24,071 nt of DNA from an uncultured Candidatus Saccharibacteria bacterium. Its GTDB lineage: Bacteria; Patescibacteriota; Minisyncoccia; Phycocordibacterales; CAYSCM01. How positions within the stretch are numbered: position 1 is the first letter of the stretch; every line of letters starts with the position of its first letter. Shown here piece by piece: positions 1-11,074 of this stretch. Below the pieces are notes generated by a model. The model ran no database searches, was not told where the DNA came from, and saw only the letters and a list, made by a program, of their open reading frames with translations. The stretch spans positions 1-24,071 of the forward strand of contig CAYSCM010000004.1 in NCBI GenBank assembly GCA_964429815.1. The letters are read 5' to 3'. The position numbers and the translations under genes were made by a program.

Positions 1-61
1 GACTCGAACCGAGGACCCACGCTTTACAAAAGCGTTGCTCTACCAACTGAGCTAAGGCGGC
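1..61 (-). tRNA. tRNA-Thr (anticodon TGT), 3' part truncated by window edge
   Basis: Reverse complement of 1-61 reads GCCGCCT-TA-GCTC-AGTTGGTA-GAGC-A-ACGCT-TTTGTAA-AGCGT-GGGTC-CTCGG-TTCGAGTC. This gives an acceptor 5' arm, D-arm, anticodon stem ACGCT/AGCGT with a 7-nt loop (U33 then TGT at 34-36), variable loop and T-arm GGTTCGAGTC. The 3' T-stem and acceptor lie outside the window. Confidence 0.8.
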
Positions 62-1254: not shown

Positions 1255-1971
1255 TTACGCCTTGTGGGTTTTTTGTCCCTCTTTGTATGCAGCGACGATC
1301 TCCTCAACGAAGAATTTAATGGAGAGTGCCGTAGCATCATTGGCGACGATCGGGTAGTCGATGTCGCTCGCATCGCAATCGGAGTTCATGAGCGCAATGA
1401 TCGGAATGCGGGCATCACGTGCTTCTTTTACCGCAATGTGCTCTTTCTTAGGGTCTATGACGAAGAGCGCGGCAGGAAGCTCTGCGAGAGAGACGAGGCC
1501 CGCGAAGTTTGCCTCGAGGCGCTCTATCTCGCGGTCTATCATAAGAAGCTCCTTCTTGATGTACTTTTTGGCGAGCGCACCGCTTGCGCGGTCTGCCTTG
1601 AGCTCTTCAAGTCGGTTCATGCGCTTGCGCATTTGCGGGAAATTACTGATGGTGCCGCCGATCCAACGTGCCGAAGCGTAGGGCATGCCGATGGCCTTGG
1701 CTCCCGAGACGACAGCGTCATGGGCCTCATTTTTGCCGCCAACAAAAAGGACCTTGCGGCCAGTCGTGGCAAGCGTCGAAACATATTCCTTGGCGAGGAG
1801 GAGGAGGTCGCTGGTCTTTTCGAGGTCGAAGATTTCAACCTTGTTTTTAGCCCCAAAAATGTAGGGTTTCGTGGAGGGGTGGCGGCGGCTCTTACTATAG
1901 CCAAAATGAGCGCCGATCGTGAACATGCGCTCAATGAGTTTTTCTTTATTTGGCGACGTAGCGGTCGTCAT
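1255..1971 (-). CDS. rpsB: 30S ribosomal protein S2. True start is the internal ATG at 1969-1971 (MTTATSPNKEK...); the longer 388-aa track ORF is an upstream Arg-rich artefact
   Basis: Typical S2 core (ERMFTIGAHFGYSKSRRHPSTKPYIFGAKNKVEIFDLEKT ... VIDPKKEHIAVKEARDARIPIIALMNSDCD). The upstream part of the track ORF overlaps a terminator hairpin and another gene. Confidence 0.95.
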   Translation of the reverse strand: MTTATSPNKEKLIERMFTIGAHFGYSKSRRHPSTKPYIFGAKNKVEIFDLEKTSDLLLLAKEYVSTLATTGRKVLFVGGKNEAHDAVVSGAKAIGMPYASARWIGGTISNFPQMRKRMNRLEELKADRASGALAKKYIKKELLMIDREIERLEANFAGLVSLAELPAALFVIDPKKEHIAVKEARDARIPIIALMNSDCDASDIDYPIVANDATALSIKFFVEEIVAAYKEGQKTHKA

Positions 1972-1979
1972 GAGGACAC

Positions 1980-2008
1980 ACTGTACCAGAGGAAATGCTG
2001 CTCTGCAA
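1980..2008 (-). promoter_or_regulatory. candidate sigma70-type promoter for rpsB-tsf (-35 TTGCAG at 2003-2008, 17-nt spacer, -10 TACAGT at 1980-1985). The TSS would fall about 2 nt before the ATG (leaderless-like)
   Basis: Read directly from the minus strand: TTGCAGAGCAGCATTTCCTCTGGTACAGTGTGTCCTCATG. No Shine-Dalgarno is present. Confidence 0.3.
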
Positions 2009-2045
2009 CAAAAGAGAAGCCCCGTCCGCGCATGCGCGGACGGGG
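2005..2045 (-). terminator. rho-independent terminator of the 2064-2681 gene (perfect 26-nt palindrome CCCCGTCCGCGCATGCGCGGACGGGG followed by CTTCTCTTTTGTT on the minus strand)
   Basis: Perfect GC-rich inverted repeat 2020-2045 with a T-rich tract immediately 3' on the minus strand. Confidence 0.75.
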
Positions 2046-2063
2046 TACATAAGATAGAAAGAG

Positions 2064-2681
2064 CTACTTGCGGACCGCGGCGAAGCGGTGGTAGACGTAC
2101 CAGCCGTACTCGATCCAGTCGAGGTACGCGAACCGCTTGTCGCCGTTCTCGTAGAGGCAGACCACGTCGTCGTAGCCGACGCGGCGGCGCCATTGCTGGC
2201 CGAGCGCGACAATGGGGAATCTGCGCTGCATCTGCGGATACTTGGCCCCGAAGGCGAGGAGTTCGGCCGCGTTCGCAGGGCGCATCCCCTGCTTGTCGAG
2301 CTTCGCGAGCGCCTTCTTGGTCGAGAGGTTGCGGTTGAGGTGGACGAGTTCGATGTTCATGGATTCGTCTCCCTCCCGCTCCTGCGGGAAGTGCGCGTCC
2401 GTGATGTCGTCGTTCGTCCAATCGTACTTGCCCGCCGCGAGCAACTCCTTGATCGTCGCATTGCCCTTGTAAGGCACGGCGACGGGGTAGGAGTCAGTGG
2501 CGGGGGCGGCCGGCGGCCGAAGCGCATTGAGAAACGTCTTCTGCAATGTCTCTCCGTTGTGTGTCCAATTCTTGCACAGCTCCGCTCCGAGCTCGTCAGC
2601 GATGAGCCCGAGGGCTTTAACTCCAGCGGCGAGGAAATTCGCCCGCTGGCCTGCGGATAGGGTGGTTCCATGGTTTGACAT
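2064..2681 (-). CDS. hypothetical protein (205 aa, no recognised domain), monocistronic between a consensus promoter and its own terminator
   Basis: Clean ORF with ATG at 2679-2681 preceded by AAGGGAA (SD-like). C-terminal aromatic-rich segment (YDDVVCLYENGDKRFAYLDWIEYGWYVYHRF). I could not assign a family. Confidence 0.7.
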   Translation of the reverse strand: MSNHGTTLSAGQRANFLAAGVKALGLIADELGAELCKNWTHNGETLQKTFLNALRPPAAPATDSYPVAVPYKGNATIKELLAAGKYDWTNDDITDAHFPQEREGDESMNIELVHLNRNLSTKKALAKLDKQGMRPANAAELLAFGAKYPQMQRRFPIVALGQQWRRRVGYDDVVCLYENGDKRFAYLDWIEYGWYVYHRFAAVRK

Positions 2682-2735
2682 GGGGGTTCCCTTTCGACGC
2701 TCGAGAATGGCGCAGTGCCACTCTTTCTGGGGAAA

Positions 2736-2764
2736 ATTATACTCTTAAAATAAGAATAAGTCAA
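2736..2764 (-). promoter_or_regulatory. consensus sigma70 promoter (-35 TTGACT at 2759-2764, 17-nt spacer, -10 TATAAT at 2736-2741) driving the 2064-2681 gene
   Basis: Minus strand reads TTGACTTATTCTTATTTTAAGAGTATAATTTTCC. The -35 abuts/overlaps the 42-bp palindrome. Confidence 0.7.
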
Positions 2765-2805
2765 TATACCCCTTCTTAATCCTATAGGATTAAGAAGGGG
2801 TATAT
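2764..2805. repeat. perfect 42-bp AT-rich palindrome (ATATACCCCTTCTTAATCCTATAGGATTAAGAAGGGGTATAT): likely prfA terminator and/or operator overlapping the -35
   Basis: Checked base by base: 2764-2784 is the exact reverse complement of 2785-2805. It lies 60 nt after the prfA stop and directly upstream of the consensus promoter. Confidence 0.8.
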
Positions 2806-2865
2806 GCTGTCTGTGTCTAGGCCGCTCTCTGCGCCCACTGGATACAGCGTTTAGAATTTTTTGTT

Positions 2866-3834
2866 TTATTCTACGGCTGACGCGGGCAAAACTTCCCTAT
2901 TCTCAAAGGAGGTCAGTATCCGGTCTAAATCTCCCGCTAAAATACCGGGGAGGTTGTGCCAACTTTCCTTAATGCGGTGGTCGGTAACGCGGTCTTGGAG
3001 CACGTTGTAGGTGCGGATTTTTTCGGAGCGGTCGCCGGTACCGATCTGCTCCGCGCGAGCGCCGTGGAACTTCTTCATTTCCTCCTCTTCGGCGCGCGCT
3101 TCAAGCTGCGCGTAGAGCATTTGCATCGCCTTTTCGCGATTTTGCGCCTGGCTTCGTTCGCTCGTGCAACGCACCGCAATGCCGGAGGGCTTGTGTATGA
3201 GGCGCACCGCGGTTTCCACCTTGTTGACGTTCTGCCCTCCTGCTCCGCCCGAGCGGCTAAATTCCATTTCAATGTCTGCGGGGTTGATTTCAACCTTGTG
3301 CTTCTTGCGGATAGGCAAAATCGCAACCGAAGCGGTCGAGGTGTGTACGCGGCCGCTCTTTTCTGTCTCAGGAATACGCTGTATGCGATGCACCCCAGTT
3401 TCAAAACGCAACTTTTTGTAAACATTCTTCCCTTTTATTTCAAATGATGCCTCCTTGTAGCCTTTAAGATCGGAAGCAGATTCATCGAGCACGCGCACGC
3501 TCCAATTTTGCGCCTTGGCATACGCGCGATACATGTCGGCAAGCTCATGGGCAAAAATGGACGCCTCTTCTCCCCCCACCCCAGCGCGCACTTCGAGAAG
3601 AATTTCGTTTGGAAATTGCTCTTCTTGCTTTTCGGCCGCAAGAATTTCATCCATTTGCGCCTTCACTCCCGAAAGCTGCTCATCAAGACCGCGTACCTCT
3701 TCCTCAGCAAGCGTTTTAAGCGTCGCATCTTTATGAGCCATGCGGAAAACCTCCTCCTTTTGTTCGAGAAGCCCTTCATACTGAGACGCTAAAAAGGCCG
3801 TCTTTTGATTTTCTTTGTAGGGTGTGAGGTCCAT
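2866..3834 (-). CDS. prfA: peptide chain release factor 1 (short 322-aa form)
   Basis: GGQ motif ([26 protein letters not shown]) and an RF1-type PxT anticodon motif ([22 protein letters not shown]). Confidence 0.93.
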
Positions 3835-3884
3835 AAAAGTAGCACGAAGCGCCCGCAGGAACTGCGGGCGCTTCCGGAGCGTCG

Positions 3885-4124
3885 TTATTCACCCTTGCCG
3901 GCCTTCTTTTCCTTGTGAGCCTTGGCAGCGGCAGTGCGAGCCTTAAAGCGCTCAACGCGACCGGCGGTGTCGATGATTTTCTCGGCGCCAGTATAGAACG
4001 GGTGGCACGCGCGACAGACTTCGACGTGGAGCTTCTCCCTCGTCGAACCAACAGTGTAGGTAGCGCCACACGCGCAGGTGATAGTGGCGTTATCGAAATA
4101 TTTTGGGTGAATGTCTGCCTTCAT
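3885..4124 (-). CDS. rpmE: 50S ribosomal protein L31 (zinc-ribbon type A)
   Basis: MKADIHPKY...CACG...[10 protein letters not shown]: canonical L31 with a CxxC...CxxC zinc ribbon. Confidence 0.93.
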
Positions 4125-4168
4125 AGCGATGAGACGATAGCAGGAAAATCGGGATTTGTAAAGAAAGG

Positions 4169-4194
4169 CGCCGTCGCCTCAAGGCGACGGCGCG
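4169..4194 (-). terminator. rho-independent terminator overlapping the 3' end of the 4179-4838 gene (stem GCGCCGTCGCC/GGCGACGGCGC, loop TCAA, then CTTTCTTT on the minus strand)
   Basis: 11-bp GC stem plus T tract read on the minus strand. It separates the hypothetical gene from rpmE. Confidence 0.65.
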
Positions 4195-5103: not shown

Positions 5104-6489
5104 TCAATTCCTTGCCAAGACATCGATTTGGCTTTGGAAGTTGCTCGCGAGCTCCATCACTTCGTTGCCGTAAAAGGCGTACGCGGACTTCCCTGCGTTA
5201 GCCCACCCCGCAAGGTAGCGAAGTGCCGCGAGACGCTCCGCTTGTGGTGTTCCCGCAGAGGCTCCGTTATCCGAGAGAAGTGCCGCGGCTGCCATAAACG
5301 CATCCTCGTTGTCCCAGGGATTACTAGCCCCGCTGCCGCCGGTTAATTTTCTGATGCGATCACGACCCGCGTCATAAGCCCAGGGGCCGACCCACGTCTT
5401 ATTTGGATTGGGGCCGCACACGCCGGTCGTCGTATTGTAAAAACCGCCGAAACACGCCCAGGTGGAGGGGATAAACTGCGCCGGGCCCATGGCTCCGCCC
5501 CAGCCGTACCACGCACGCTTAGAAACCGGCATCTGATTTGGATCAAGGCCAAGCTGCGCCGTTATGGCGAGGAAGAGCGGCTTATCGCGGGTCGGGTTCA
5601 TATCGACGCTCCAGCTTCCCGTGCCGATGTTCTCGCCGAGATTGGTCTCTTCCGCCAAGACGCCCAGGAGAAACGCGGGGCGGACGCCGGTCTTCTGGTA
5701 GGCGAGATTCGCGAGGTCGAGCGCTTTGCCGAAGGGTATCGCCGCCGAATCGCGCAGCGTAAAGAGCTCGGAGCGTATTTGGGCGGCGCTTTTTTGGCTG
5801 CTTGTGAGAAGCGCTTGGTAGGCCGCCTCCTGACCTTTGGTTTGCGAGAGTATTTGCTTGCGCTCCTGCTCTTGCGCGACGATTTTCTGCTGTTCGAGCA
5901 CTTGGATCTGACGCAATTCCAGTTGCTCGGCTTTTTTATCCTCGAGCGCGGCTTTCTGGGTCTCGGTGAGATTCTTCGTGTCAGCGATATCCGAAAAAGA
6001 GGTATGGAGCGCTCCCTTGATGGAGTCGAAGCGGTCTATGTCGGTGAAAATATCGGAGAGCGTCCCGCTTCCCAAGAGAAGCTCCGCGAGTGAGTAGTCG
6101 TCTATCTGGCTTTGCTGCCGCACGAGCTGCGCGAGAGACTCTTTTTCGCGCCCGAGCTTATCGTTGAGACCGCCTATCGTCGCCTGCTTGCTTTCGATAT
6201 CGCCCTGAAGCTCTTCGATCGTAAGGTCGCGTGCTTTGATGGCGAGTTTTGCAGAGTCTATTTTGGCATCGAGAATGGCGACGTCGCGCTCGAGCGAAAC
6301 GCGCTCCTGCGATTTTGCGTCGAGAAGTTTTTGCTGATCGGCTATCTGCCCCTCAAGCTGCGCGAGCTGCTGCTCGAGCTGTGCGCGACGATTCTGTACA
6401 TCCACGCTTCCCGTTTCCTGCGCGAAGAGATGCGGCGGGAGGGCGAGAGCGCCCGCGAGCACCGCCACAGCAAGGAGCCGCTTGTGCAT
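5104..6489 (-). CDS. secreted lytic murein transglycosylase (MltB/SLT family 3-like C-terminal domain) with a long N-terminal coiled-coil region. Likely start is the ATG at 6487-6489 (MHKRLLAVAVLAGALA...); the track used a GTG two codons upstream
   Basis: Signal peptide, then about 250 aa rich in Q/E/L/K heptad-like repeats. C-terminal motifs AWYGWGGAMGPAQFIPSTW and YAFYGNE are typical of MltB-like transglycosylases. A TATACT box lies 7 nt upstream of the ATG. Confidence 0.75.
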   Translation of the reverse strand: MHKRLLAVAVLAGALALPPHLFAQETGSVDVQNRRAQLEQQLAQLEGQIADQQKLLDAKSQERVSLERDVAILDAKIDSAKLAIKARDLTIEELQGDIESKQATIGGLNDKLGREKESLAQLVRQQSQIDDYSLAELLLGSGTLSDIFTDIDRFDSIKGALHTSFSDIADTKNLTETQKAALEDKKAEQLELRQIQVLEQQKIVAQEQERKQILSQTKGQEAAYQALLTSSQKSAAQIRSELFTLRDSAAIPFGKALDLANLAYQKTGVRPAFLLGVLAEETNLGENIGTGSWSVDMNPTRDKPLFLAITAQLGLDPNQMPVSKRAWYGWGGAMGPAQFIPSTWACFGGFYNTTTGVCGPNPNKTWVGPWAYDAGRDRIRKLTGGSGASNPWDNEDAFMAAAALLSDNGASAGTPQAERLAALRYLAGWANAGKSAYAFYGNEVMELASNFQSQIDVLARN

Positions 6490-8144: not shown

Positions 8145-8168
8145 GAGATTCAGTATAACAAGACTAAA

Positions 8169-8192
8169 ACCCGTTCGCTTCGGCGAACGGGT
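8169..8192. other. hairpin 1 (10-bp stem ACCCGTTCGC/GCGAACGGGT, UUCG loop), followed on the minus strand by TTTTAG and then the fba extended -10
   Basis: Perfect inverted repeat read directly from the sequence. Confidence 0.6.
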
Positions 8193-8234
8193 TCGTCCGA
8201 GCGCCAGAGGTGCTGTAGGGAAAAATGACCTCCA

Positions 8235-8267: not shown

Positions 8268-8297
8268 GAAAAACCGCCGACCGTTCGGTCGGCGGTT
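8268..8297 (-). terminator. hairpin 3 plus T tract: rho-independent terminator of the 8307-8612 gene (AACCGCCGACC-gttc-GGTCGGCGGTT then TTTTCCTTT on the minus strand)
   Basis: 11-bp perfect stem followed by TTTTTCCTTT on the minus strand, 10 nt after the stop codon. Confidence 0.75.
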
Positions 8298-9727: not shown

Positions 9728-10030
9728 TTACCTGCTTTTCTTTTTTCGCCTTCGAGGCTTCGTCTGTCGCAATTCGTGAAATTTGCGCTCAAAGTCTCCA
9801 TGCACGCTCGCGAAACCGGGCGAGCGCAACTGGAGGCTTTCAAATATCATTCTCCACGGAAATTGTTGCTGCAGACGATGCCTGTAGGGATTTTTCTTCG
9901 CTGCGATTTCTATAACGCGATAGCAGTAGCGAATATCTTTCCAGTACCGCCTTGATTTGGCTAAACCCGAAGGGGTTTTAAAACAGCGTTTTTGGGCTTC
10001 AGTGCGCAAATCATAAAGTGTCTGGCACAT
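9728..10030 (-). CDS. hypothetical very basic 100-aa protein (C-terminal RRRKKKSR tail). Uncertain; could instead be a noncoding transcript
   Basis: ORF bracketed by two terminators. AGGAG lies 8 nt upstream of the ATG at 10028-10030. Lower GC than its flanks and no homology recognisable. Confidence 0.35.
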   Translation of the reverse strand: MCQTLYDLRTEAQKRCFKTPSGLAKSRRYWKDIRYCYRVIEIAAKKNPYRHRLQQQFPWRMIFESLQLRSPGFASVHGDFERKFHELRQTKPRRRKKKSR

Positions 10031-10082
10031 GGCACAGTCTCCTCTTCCGGTAGCATTCTAAATAGACGGTGGAAAAAGAAAA

Positions 10083-10106
10083 GCCCGAAGTCGTACGACT
10101 TCGGGC
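10083..10106 (-). terminator. rho-independent terminator of the cell-wall hydrolase gene (perfect 24-nt palindrome GCCCGAAGTCGTACGACTTCGGGC then TTTTCTTTTT on the minus strand)
   Basis: Perfect palindrome with a strong T tract on the minus strand and TTAGGGTTTT on the plus strand. Confidence 0.8.
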
Positions 10107-10124
10107 TTAGGGTTTTGCTCGCGC

Positions 10125-10999: not shown

Positions 11000-11054
11000 A
11001 AGCCTCCTCAGGTTTTCGGGGGTAATTATATAACACAAAAAGCCATCTTGTCAA
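11000..11054 (-). promoter_or_regulatory. near-consensus sigma70 promoter for the hydrolase gene (TTGACA - 18 nt - TATAAT, then about 25-nt leader with GAGGAGG)
   Basis: Minus strand reads TTGACAAGATGGCTTTTTGTGTTATATAATTACCCCCGAAAACCTGAGGAGGCTTCCATG. Confidence 0.6.
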
Positions 11055-11074
11055 TCGTACAAAACGGCTTGGTC

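Follow-up and report, generated by a model that had tools for sequence, protein, structure and literature searches.

A perfect 42-bp palindrome and the near-consensus promoter fused to it would together head a self-contained gene cassette, inserted between prfA and rpsB on the minus strand of the 24,071-nt stretch of DNA analysed here (the window). We have high confidence in the insertion of about 846 bp, and in the identity of the inserted gene as one encoding a variable protein of the type found in diversity-generating retroelements (DGRs). The palindrome is most likely an unusual (long, AT-rich, weak-U-tract) terminator or insulator hairpin, that is, an element with an ordinary job and of known kinds. 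The chances of this function, by which read-through from prfA would be stopped just before the strong promoter of the inserted gene, are about even.

An insertion between prfA and rpsB

The local genes all lie on the minus strand, in the order rpmE (3885-4124), prfA (2866..3834, encoding the 322-aa RF1), an ORF of 205 aa (2064..2681), a GC hairpin, rpsB (1255..1971, encoding the 238-aa S2) and tsf (640-1224). Homologs of RF1 put the organism among the Paceibacterota/Parcubacteria. The closest relatives whose loci were fetched have RF1 identities of 76% (L013/L014), 71% (L015) and 69% (L016), and keep the string rpmE-prfA-rpsB-tsf. In these loci, the called prfA and rpsB genes either overlap (L013/L014), or are separated by a gap of 22 nt (L016) or 44 nt (L015).

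The C-terminus of the window RF1 is collinear with that of L013. On the other side, the 48 nt next to rpsB (1972..2019) resemble the spacers of L015 and L013. An extended -10-like sequence, TGGTACAGT, is present at 1988..1980, 8 nt before the rpsB ATG (1971), and a block with the extended -10-like pattern CCTCTGGTA(C/G)A(G/C)T is common to the window, L015 and L013 spacers, 8 nt before the ATG. The adjacency of prfA and rpsB in the relatives, the collinear RF1 end and the kept spacer at 1972-2019 together indicate that the segment of about 846 bp at ~2020..2865 was inserted directly after the prfA stop, into the ancestral rpmE-prfA-rpsB-tsf string.

In the direction of transcription, the insertion begins with 60 nt of unrelated sequence. 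The palindrome and the promoter follow, then a leader of ~47 nt, the 205-aa ORF, 18 nt, and the GC hairpin. The 60-nt left segment (2806..2865) shows no homology with the spacer that separates prfA and rpsB in the relatives, and is counted with the insertion. No homology of this segment, of the promoter and leader, or of the 3' flank was found to other cassettes or elsewhere in the window. A MAFFT alignment of the upstream regions paired the palindrome with the -10 region of L007 (~63% over 35 nt), which we regard as an artefact of aligning AT-rich sequence. At its other end, the insertion stops with the GC hairpin (2020-2045), the T-rich tail of which belongs to the ancestral spacer. The inserted gene has a GC content of 62.8%, compared with 52-54% in the neighboring genes. 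The preliminary description had treated the ORF as a hypothetical gene; that it encodes a DGR-type variable protein, and that the prfA-rpsB spacer including the palindrome is an insertion, had both been missed.

The inserted gene and its relatives

The 205-aa protein gave no match in Pfam, NCBIfam, PHROGs, PADLOC or the PDB sequences. Its AF2 model (pLDDT 89) contains an N-terminal three-helix segment and a C-type-lectin-fold domain, with a C-type-lectin/FGE fold that matches the DGR protein TvpA. A word-indexed search returned 177 family matches, and a profile search of 1.84 billion representatives returned 7,889 clusters, defined at 50% identity, at E<=0.001, and 1,742 at E<=1e-30. The named family members come from Patescibacteria MAGs. 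In the family alignment, a variable N-terminal segment precedes a conserved core, and the last ~45 residues, which end in RFAAVRK, are hypervariable. The protein thus combines a C-type-lectin-type fold with variable C-terminal residues, as is required of a DGR target protein.

Several homologs (P0008, P0015 and P0046) adjoin genes for RVT_1 and bAvd, both of which are carried by L017, L019 and L021. Adenine-specific TR/VR pairs, with AAC-to-N differences, are present in L019, L017, L021, L007 and L023. The 3' segment of the window gene (2067..2204) is VR-like, as it aligns with the VR/TR pairs of the homologous DGRs and has varied codons at positions where the homologous TRs have AAC. The 3' end of the gene is a VR-type GTCCGCAAGTAG, followed by a GC-rich inverted repeat. 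In the manner of an IMH, the gene end GCGGTCCGCAAGTAG matches the VRs of the homologs, unlike the TR-type GTCCGAAAC. [quoted passage not shown] The corresponding position in the window, 18 nt after the gene stop, is occupied by a perfect 26-bp GC hairpin (2020..2045, minus strand), CCCCGTCCGCGCATGCGCGGACGGGG, followed by CTTCTCTTTT, which also looks like a terminator.

A search of the window and the 7.9 kb beyond its start (32 kb in total) revealed no RT or Avd, and no TR matching 2067..2204 was found in the window or L001. The homologs have a VR paired with a TR beside the RT, whereas the window copy has no such pair within the 32 kb. The absence of RT, Avd and TR from this region suggests that the window copy is a remote or orphan target, or a relic. 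The copy in L020 is like that in the window in this respect.

The "hypothetical" gene is thus, with high confidence, a member of the DGR C-type-lectin-fold variable-protein family. A function class is gained for a very large unannotated family (~7,900 clusters at 50% identity, no Pfam model), consisting of DGR-diversified lectin-fold proteins of Patescibacteria, and the cassettes that carry them land within ribosomal and translation-factor operons.

The palindrome, the promoter and possible read-through from prfA

The letters at 2764-2805 are ATATACCCCTTCTTAATCCTATAGGATTAAGAAGGGGTATAT, a 42-bp inverted repeat with 21 of 21 positions paired, zero spacer, a GC content of 33% and the centre CCTATAGG. 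The exact repeat reported in the preliminary description was therefore recovered in full, together with its distance of 60 nt from the prfA stop codon (2868..2866), which corresponds exactly to 2806-2865; the distance of about 50 nt to the hypothetical gene agrees with the 54 nt that separate the ATG at 2681 from the -10 hexamer. As RNA of the sense (minus) strand, the palindrome forms a 19-bp stem with a UAUA loop. It is by far the longest palindrome in the window and the adjoining 7.9 kb of the contig, where the runners-up have arms of 14 and 13 nt. In mononucleotide shuffles of the window (n=30), no arm exceeded 9 nt, compared with 21 nt here, and 0.00 matches to the half-site are expected in the window, even when 3 mismatches are allowed. 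The element had been said to stand out by its length, perfection and AT-richness, and these comparisons, with the GC content of 33% against 57.2% for the window, agree. The accompanying phrase "GC-rich genome" was a mild overstatement for a window of 57.2% GC; the AT-richness of the palindrome and promoter stood, and the 42-mer at 2733-2774, which covers the promoter and the edge of the palindrome, has the lowest GC content (21%) of any in the 24-kb window.

In Logan contigs (k=31) from three sequencing runs (SRR12313479, SRR12313480 and SRR12313482), the gene side stops at 2793 and the prfA side begins at 2776. These break points are the last 31-mers not wholly within a perfect 42-bp palindrome. 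Since the breaks fall at exactly the predicted 31-mers, the palindrome must be present in the reads and is not the product of one assembler; the exact breaks in three runs, together with the synteny with relatives, rule out an assembly artefact. Perfect palindromes longer than k break k-mer assemblies predictably in this way, and may fragment such loci in metagenomes.

Searches for known elements gave little. In Rfam (at the gathering threshold and also at E<=1), the palindrome region matched no known RNA family, with only sub-threshold matches to generic hairpins of the miRNA type. A derivation of the AT-rich promoter region from a vector, a phage or a plasmid was rejected by blastn, which gave nothing relevant against plasmids, and only 21-29-nt chance matches against phages. 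Also rejected, by comparison with the general features of these elements, were an integron attC site, a dif/Xer site and a protelomerase target: neither an integrase nor a telomere resolvase is present, the locus lies in the interior of a chromosome, and its position relative to the ORF does not fit such sites.

The promoter lies on the minus strand and consists of the -35 hexamer TTGACT (2759..2764), the first T of which (2764) is the last base of the palindrome, and the -10 hexamer TATAAT (2736..2741), at a distance of 17 nt. This arrangement, including the shared base, had been described correctly. The two hexamers match the sigma-70 consensus at 11 of 12 positions; two sites with at least 11/12 matches were observed in the window, compared with 0.045 expected. 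Within the 17-nt spacer (2742-2758), a small imperfect inverted repeat, TATTCTTA-TTT-TAAGAGTA, is present and extends into the -10 hexamer. With a putative start site downstream of it, the 5' leader would comprise ~47 nt (2682..2728, minus strand), with a hairpin, GAGTGGC-ACTGC-GCCATTC, at ~2722-2704 and an RBS-like AAAGGGAA. Leaders with a hairpin and the RBS GGAGGAACAGC are also present in the homologous cassettes.

Near-consensus promoters were found in 5 of the 6 other cassettes read: TTGACA-16-TATAAT in L017, TTGACA-17-TATTAT in L007 and L008, TTGACA-17-TATAGT in L021, and TTGACA-17-TACGCT in L019. The sixth, L020, has no clear one. The L007 and L008 cassettes have ~215 nt upstream of the ATG in common, despite having different upstream neighbors (the truB side and pirin, respectively), which suggests that the promoter travels with the gene. 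The occurrence of near-consensus promoters on the homologous cassettes would account for that in the window, and supports its original assignment as a sigma70 promoter. The second site with at least 11/12 matches in the window (11054..11025) overlaps a terminator-like hairpin with a T-tract, and the gene behind it is missing from the syntenic locus of L016; a compact terminator-promoter junction before an accessory gene recurs in this genome.

Between the prfA stop and the promoter, the only strong structure is the palindrome hairpin, a stem-loop that follows the stop after 60 nt on the coding strand, as expected for an intrinsic terminator. A terminator for prfA had been proposed in the preliminary description, with a fold energy calculation as one check. 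The predicted RNA fold energy is -29.8 kcal/mol (z = -7.7), as stable as the local terminators, which are GC-rich hairpins with T-tracts in the window at -21.3, -25.0 and -27.4 kcal/mol. The position and the fold energy thus support that proposal, and the U-tract does not, as it is short by one T. Terminators were called where an 8-nt window beginning 0-2 nt past the stem contained at least 5 T; the palindrome tail, TTGACTTATTCTTATTTT, has 4 T in each eligible 8-nt window, and the palindrome is uncalled by this rule. Over its first 10 nt, the tail contains 5 T, where the called terminators have 6-7. The extra length of the stem compensates for the AT-richness of the hairpin.

A counterpart was found in L019, where rpsH and rplF are separated by an inserted, complete DGR cassette. 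Its palindrome, TTGTATCATAATTTCCCTATAGGAAAGTTATGATACAA, is 38 bp long and AT-rich, with 17 of 19 positions paired and one of the two mismatches being G.U on the sense strand. On its upstream side, 47 nt separate it from the rpsH stop, and on its downstream side, 32 nt separate it from the -35 hexamer; its hairpin has no U-rich tail (flank UAGAGUCAACAG). In both operon-internal insertions, that in the window and that in L019, the host gene and the cassette promoter are therefore separated by a long AT-rich hairpin, which we take as the best support for a terminator or insulator against read-through. RNase III-type processing of the ~20-bp duplex may take place as a sub-variant of the same function, not separable from termination. 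No such palindrome was found within the conserved upstream regions of L007, L008, L020 and L021, which suggests that the element is not obligatory for the cassette.

If the palindrome is a terminator or insulator hairpin, the cassette would work as follows. It comprises, in order, the hairpin, a strong sigma-70-type promoter, a short structured leader, the DGR-type lectin-fold gene and the GC hairpin, and landed directly after the prfA stop codon, splitting the ancestral prfA-rpsB junction. RNA polymerase arriving from rpmE-prfA would transcribe the palindrome into a 19-21-bp hairpin (-29.8 kcal/mol), the 3' flank of which is AT-rich promoter DNA, UAUAUUGACUUAUUCUUAUUUU. The hairpin would terminate the host transcript, or at least pause the polymerase or allow processing of the RNA, so that prfA gains a 3' end. 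The promoter would drive the variable-protein gene independently of the operon, and expression of rpsB-tsf would continue from the retained extended -10 promoter near the rpsB start. The locus would then be a clean natural example of a horizontally acquired gene wired harmlessly into an essential operon, in which the host transcript stops at a hairpin in front of the newcomer, the newcomer is transcribed from a consensus promoter as far as a second hairpin downstream, and the next host gene keeps its promoter.

Other explanations and comparison with known systems

Two properties of the palindrome bear on other explanations. The central octamer CCTATAGG is common to the window and L019 palindromes, the arms of which are otherwise unrelated (6/17 positions). 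Chance predicts 0.12 occurrences of the octamer per 24 kb; across the ~117 kb scanned for palindromes, no more than 3 distinct sites have it, with the octamer search covering all fetched loci. The probability of a shared centre by chance is roughly 1 in 50 to 1 in 256, which for two cases is suggestive only. Plain terminators would not be expected to have the same centre when the rest of their sequence is unrelated, and this counts against such a reading. The other property is the perfect symmetry, which fits a role at the DNA level and a very recent inverted duplication equally well.

A palindrome with perfect dyad symmetry that has one base in common with the -35 hexamer might be the site of a dimeric regulator, an operator or activator of the cassette promoter that occludes the -35 or contacts RNA polymerase from upstream. 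The L019 palindrome, with the same central CCTATAGG, likewise lies upstream of its promoter, and the distances from the centre to the -35 hexamer (20.5 and 51.5 nt) differ by ~3 helical turns, a post hoc observation from two cases only. We nevertheless consider an operator unlikely. With a span of about -36 to -77, the element does not cover the core promoter, and touches only the first base of the -35. Known dimer operators are far shorter than 42 fully symmetric bp, and dimeric HTH proteins usually read the outer half-sites, whereas the arms of the window and L019 palindromes are unrelated outside the central 8-9 bp. There is no second site or half-site in the 32 kb, no regulator gene within or beside the insertion, and no palindrome in 4 of the 6 other cassettes read (L007, L008, L020 and L021). 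The operator suggested in the preliminary description thus gained no positive evidence. The suggestion made alongside it, of a dispersed repeat, which would be of a REP- or MITE-like kind, is highly improbable. With up to 3 mismatches allowed, neither the palindrome nor its half-site was found anywhere else in the window or L001 (32 kb), and blastn against plasmids and phages gave nothing relevant. The exact 19-mer half-site gave only four single, non-palindromic chance matches in GTDB species genomes and JGI metagenomes, among them two Bacteroidota genomes (Saprospiraceae and Mesonia) and a Hainich groundwater contig, in which the match falls within a coding region, and none in IMG/VR viral contigs.

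The stability of the palindrome as DNA, with a fold energy of -17.9 kcal/mol, an AT-rich centre and zero spacer, features that are favorable to cruciform extrusion, raises the alternative that it acts as a DNA hairpin or cruciform with the sequence-specific apex CCTATAGG, which is recognised in integration or mobilisation of the DGR cassette, or is the scar of a hairpin-ended insertion intermediate. It is located near the left edge of the insertion, the exact right edge of which is a second perfect hairpin, and two independent operon-internal cassettes have long AT-rich zero-spacer palindromes with the same centre and different arms. In the DGR target hairpin or cruciform, both the stem structure and the loop sequence matter (PMC3240598). 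We regard this role as improbable, because the shared centre rests on two examples only, and because the palindrome is ~560 bp upstream of the VR and not immediately downstream of the VR and IMH as in the DGR target hairpin; upstream sequences are dispensable in the DGR model system (PMC3240598). Moreover, no recombinase, transposase or RT was found in the 32 kb, 60 nt of non-ancestral sequence separate the palindrome from the junction, such that it is not the true end of the insertion, and the L007/L008 cassette has a clean left boundary without a palindrome in two contexts. It is quite unlikely that long, AT-rich palindromes without a spacer, with the CCTATAGG apex conserved and the arms free to vary, accompany Paceibacteria DGR variable-protein cassettes as a structure-specific hairpin or cruciform in the DNA and aid the placement or insulation of these cassettes in core translation operons (prfA-rpsB and rpsH-rplF). 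If they did, they would be a cis-element not described before in DGR-associated cassettes, and different from the known IMH-proximal hairpin. A further explanation is that the palindrome is functionless, a recent inverted duplication of ~21 bp of DNA upstream of the promoter (by snap-back or template-switch replication) that is perfect because it is young. The 21/21 symmetry without a spacer, the uniqueness in the 32 kb and the absence from most homologous cassettes would all fit. Long perfect palindromes are, however, usually unstable unless tolerated or selected, and the same sequence was recovered in three separate sequencing runs. An analogous element with the same centre lies at the equivalent place in L019, and the fold energy is tuned to the range of the local terminators. 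We think such a neutral origin rather doubtful.

The elements considered above can be compared with known systems. With the operators of dimeric repressors and activators, the palindrome has in common its dyad symmetry and its contact with the -35 hexamer. Unlike typical operators, it is 2-3 times longer, lies upstream of the core promoter, and has neither repeated sites nor a cognate regulator nearby. The DGR target hairpin or cruciform (Guo et al. 2011, PMC3240598) is likewise an inverted repeat tied to a DGR target gene, and a variable stem with a conserved apex is hinted at by the window and L019 palindromes. The known DGR target element is a short GC-rich repeat directly 3' of the VR, a description that fits the hairpin at 2020-2045 and not the palindrome.

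Intrinsic terminators, including weak-U-tract or "I-shaped" ones, resemble the palindrome in having a stable stem-loop soon after a stop on the sense strand, an energy in the range of the local terminators and a moderately U-rich 3' flank. The palindrome differs in that its U-tract is short by one T and its 3' flank doubles as a promoter, and its stem is 19-21 bp with 33% GC, whereas the intrinsic terminators in the window have stems of 11-13 bp with 57-85% GC.

The cassette as a whole resembles morons, which are autonomous promoter-gene-terminator units of deviant composition between conserved genes, known from phage genomes. Like these, it combines a near-consensus promoter of its own with a hairpin terminator downstream and a deviant gene GC content (62.8% compared with 52-54%), and lies between genes that are adjacent in relatives. 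Unlike morons, it is hosted by an operon of a Paceibacteria chromosome and not by a prophage, its cargo is a DGR variable protein, and it has an extra hairpin upstream.

Gene-end hairpins and a second promoter

Ordinary gene-end hairpins in the window genome are also perfect palindromes, GC-rich and with arms of 11-14 nt (2020-2045, 3846-3874, 4168-4193, 8168-8193, 8272-8297 and 10081-10108). One of them falls between rpmE and prfA, a gap of only 0-54 nt in L013, L015 and L016, three relatives in which prfA and rpsB are directly adjacent. Very long hairpins occur at L017, another locus with a homologous variable-protein cassette: one has 22/22 paired arms and a 6-nt loop (110-159), the other 21-nt arms with one mismatch (275-320), and both lack a U-tail. 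They lie 460-670 nt upstream of another diversity-generating retroelement (DGR) variable-protein gene, where gene calling places a 172-aa ORF without any family match.

The window contains a second textbook promoter, TTGACA-18-TATAAT (12/12; 11025-11070, minus strand), located inside a hairpin (-16.6 kcal/mol) that resembles a terminator and has a T-tract. This promoter is predicted to drive the gene for a 290-aa Hydrolase_2-like protein, which is missing from the syntenic region of L016, together with its small neighbours (a DUF1653 ORF and two 52-aa ORFs). At the window edge, a truncated tRNA (1-61, minus strand) was detected with Rfam (44 bits) and missed by ARAGORN.

An extended -10-like motif, TGnTAnAnT, is conserved in the window (1980-1990, minus strand) and in two relatives (L013, ~5976-5990; L015, ~5993-6005). 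Because it lies only ~8 nt 5' of the rpsB start codon, it suggests that rpsB mRNA is leaderless or near-leaderless, transcribed from an internal promoter located where prfA ends.

Leaders and boundaries of the variable-protein cassettes

A stem-loop is present in the 5' leader of all six variable-protein genes compared, namely those of L007 (3890-3945), L008 (3910-3965), L019 (2363-2415), L020 (2422-2472), L021 (~9880-9920) and the window (~2704-2722). Pairing is retained while the sequence varies by lineage (GAGTGCGGC/GCCGCACTC versus GGTTACAGC/GCTGTAACC), and the stem-loop may be a conserved leader structure.

The common sequence of the L007 and L008 cassettes begins at a sharp left boundary (position 3786 in both, GAGGAACTCC...), ~215 nt 5' of the ATG, and their upstream neighbours differ. 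The Logan contig L010 begins a few nt from this boundary. The pattern fits a single cassette present in several different genomic settings.

Assemblies at k=31 stop inside the window palindrome at exactly predictable positions (2776 and 2793, and the ends of contigs L001-L004), and very short contigs carry the genes for many proteins closely homologous to the variable protein. Similar structures or multi-context cassettes may thus fragment variable-protein loci generally.

The variable protein and its DGR context

The 205-aa gene (2064-2681, minus strand), hypothetical in the preliminary description, combines a C-type-lectin fold with a DGR-type variable repeat (VR). Its very large Patescibacteria family comprises 7,889 clusters at 50% identity (E<=0.001), and has no model in Pfam, NCBIfam or PHROG. 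A complete DGR, consisting of variable protein, template repeat (TR), accessory protein (Avd) and reverse transcriptase (RT), is present in another Patescibacteria genome (L019, 2171-5040), inserted in a ribosomal-protein operon between rpsH and rplF; its VR (~2976-3100) and TR (~3462-3596) differ at AAC codons. For the window copy, 32 kb of sequence contain none of the RT, Avd and TR components; a published survey, by contrast, reports one neighbouring target as the usual arrangement of CPR DGRs (PMC5758913).
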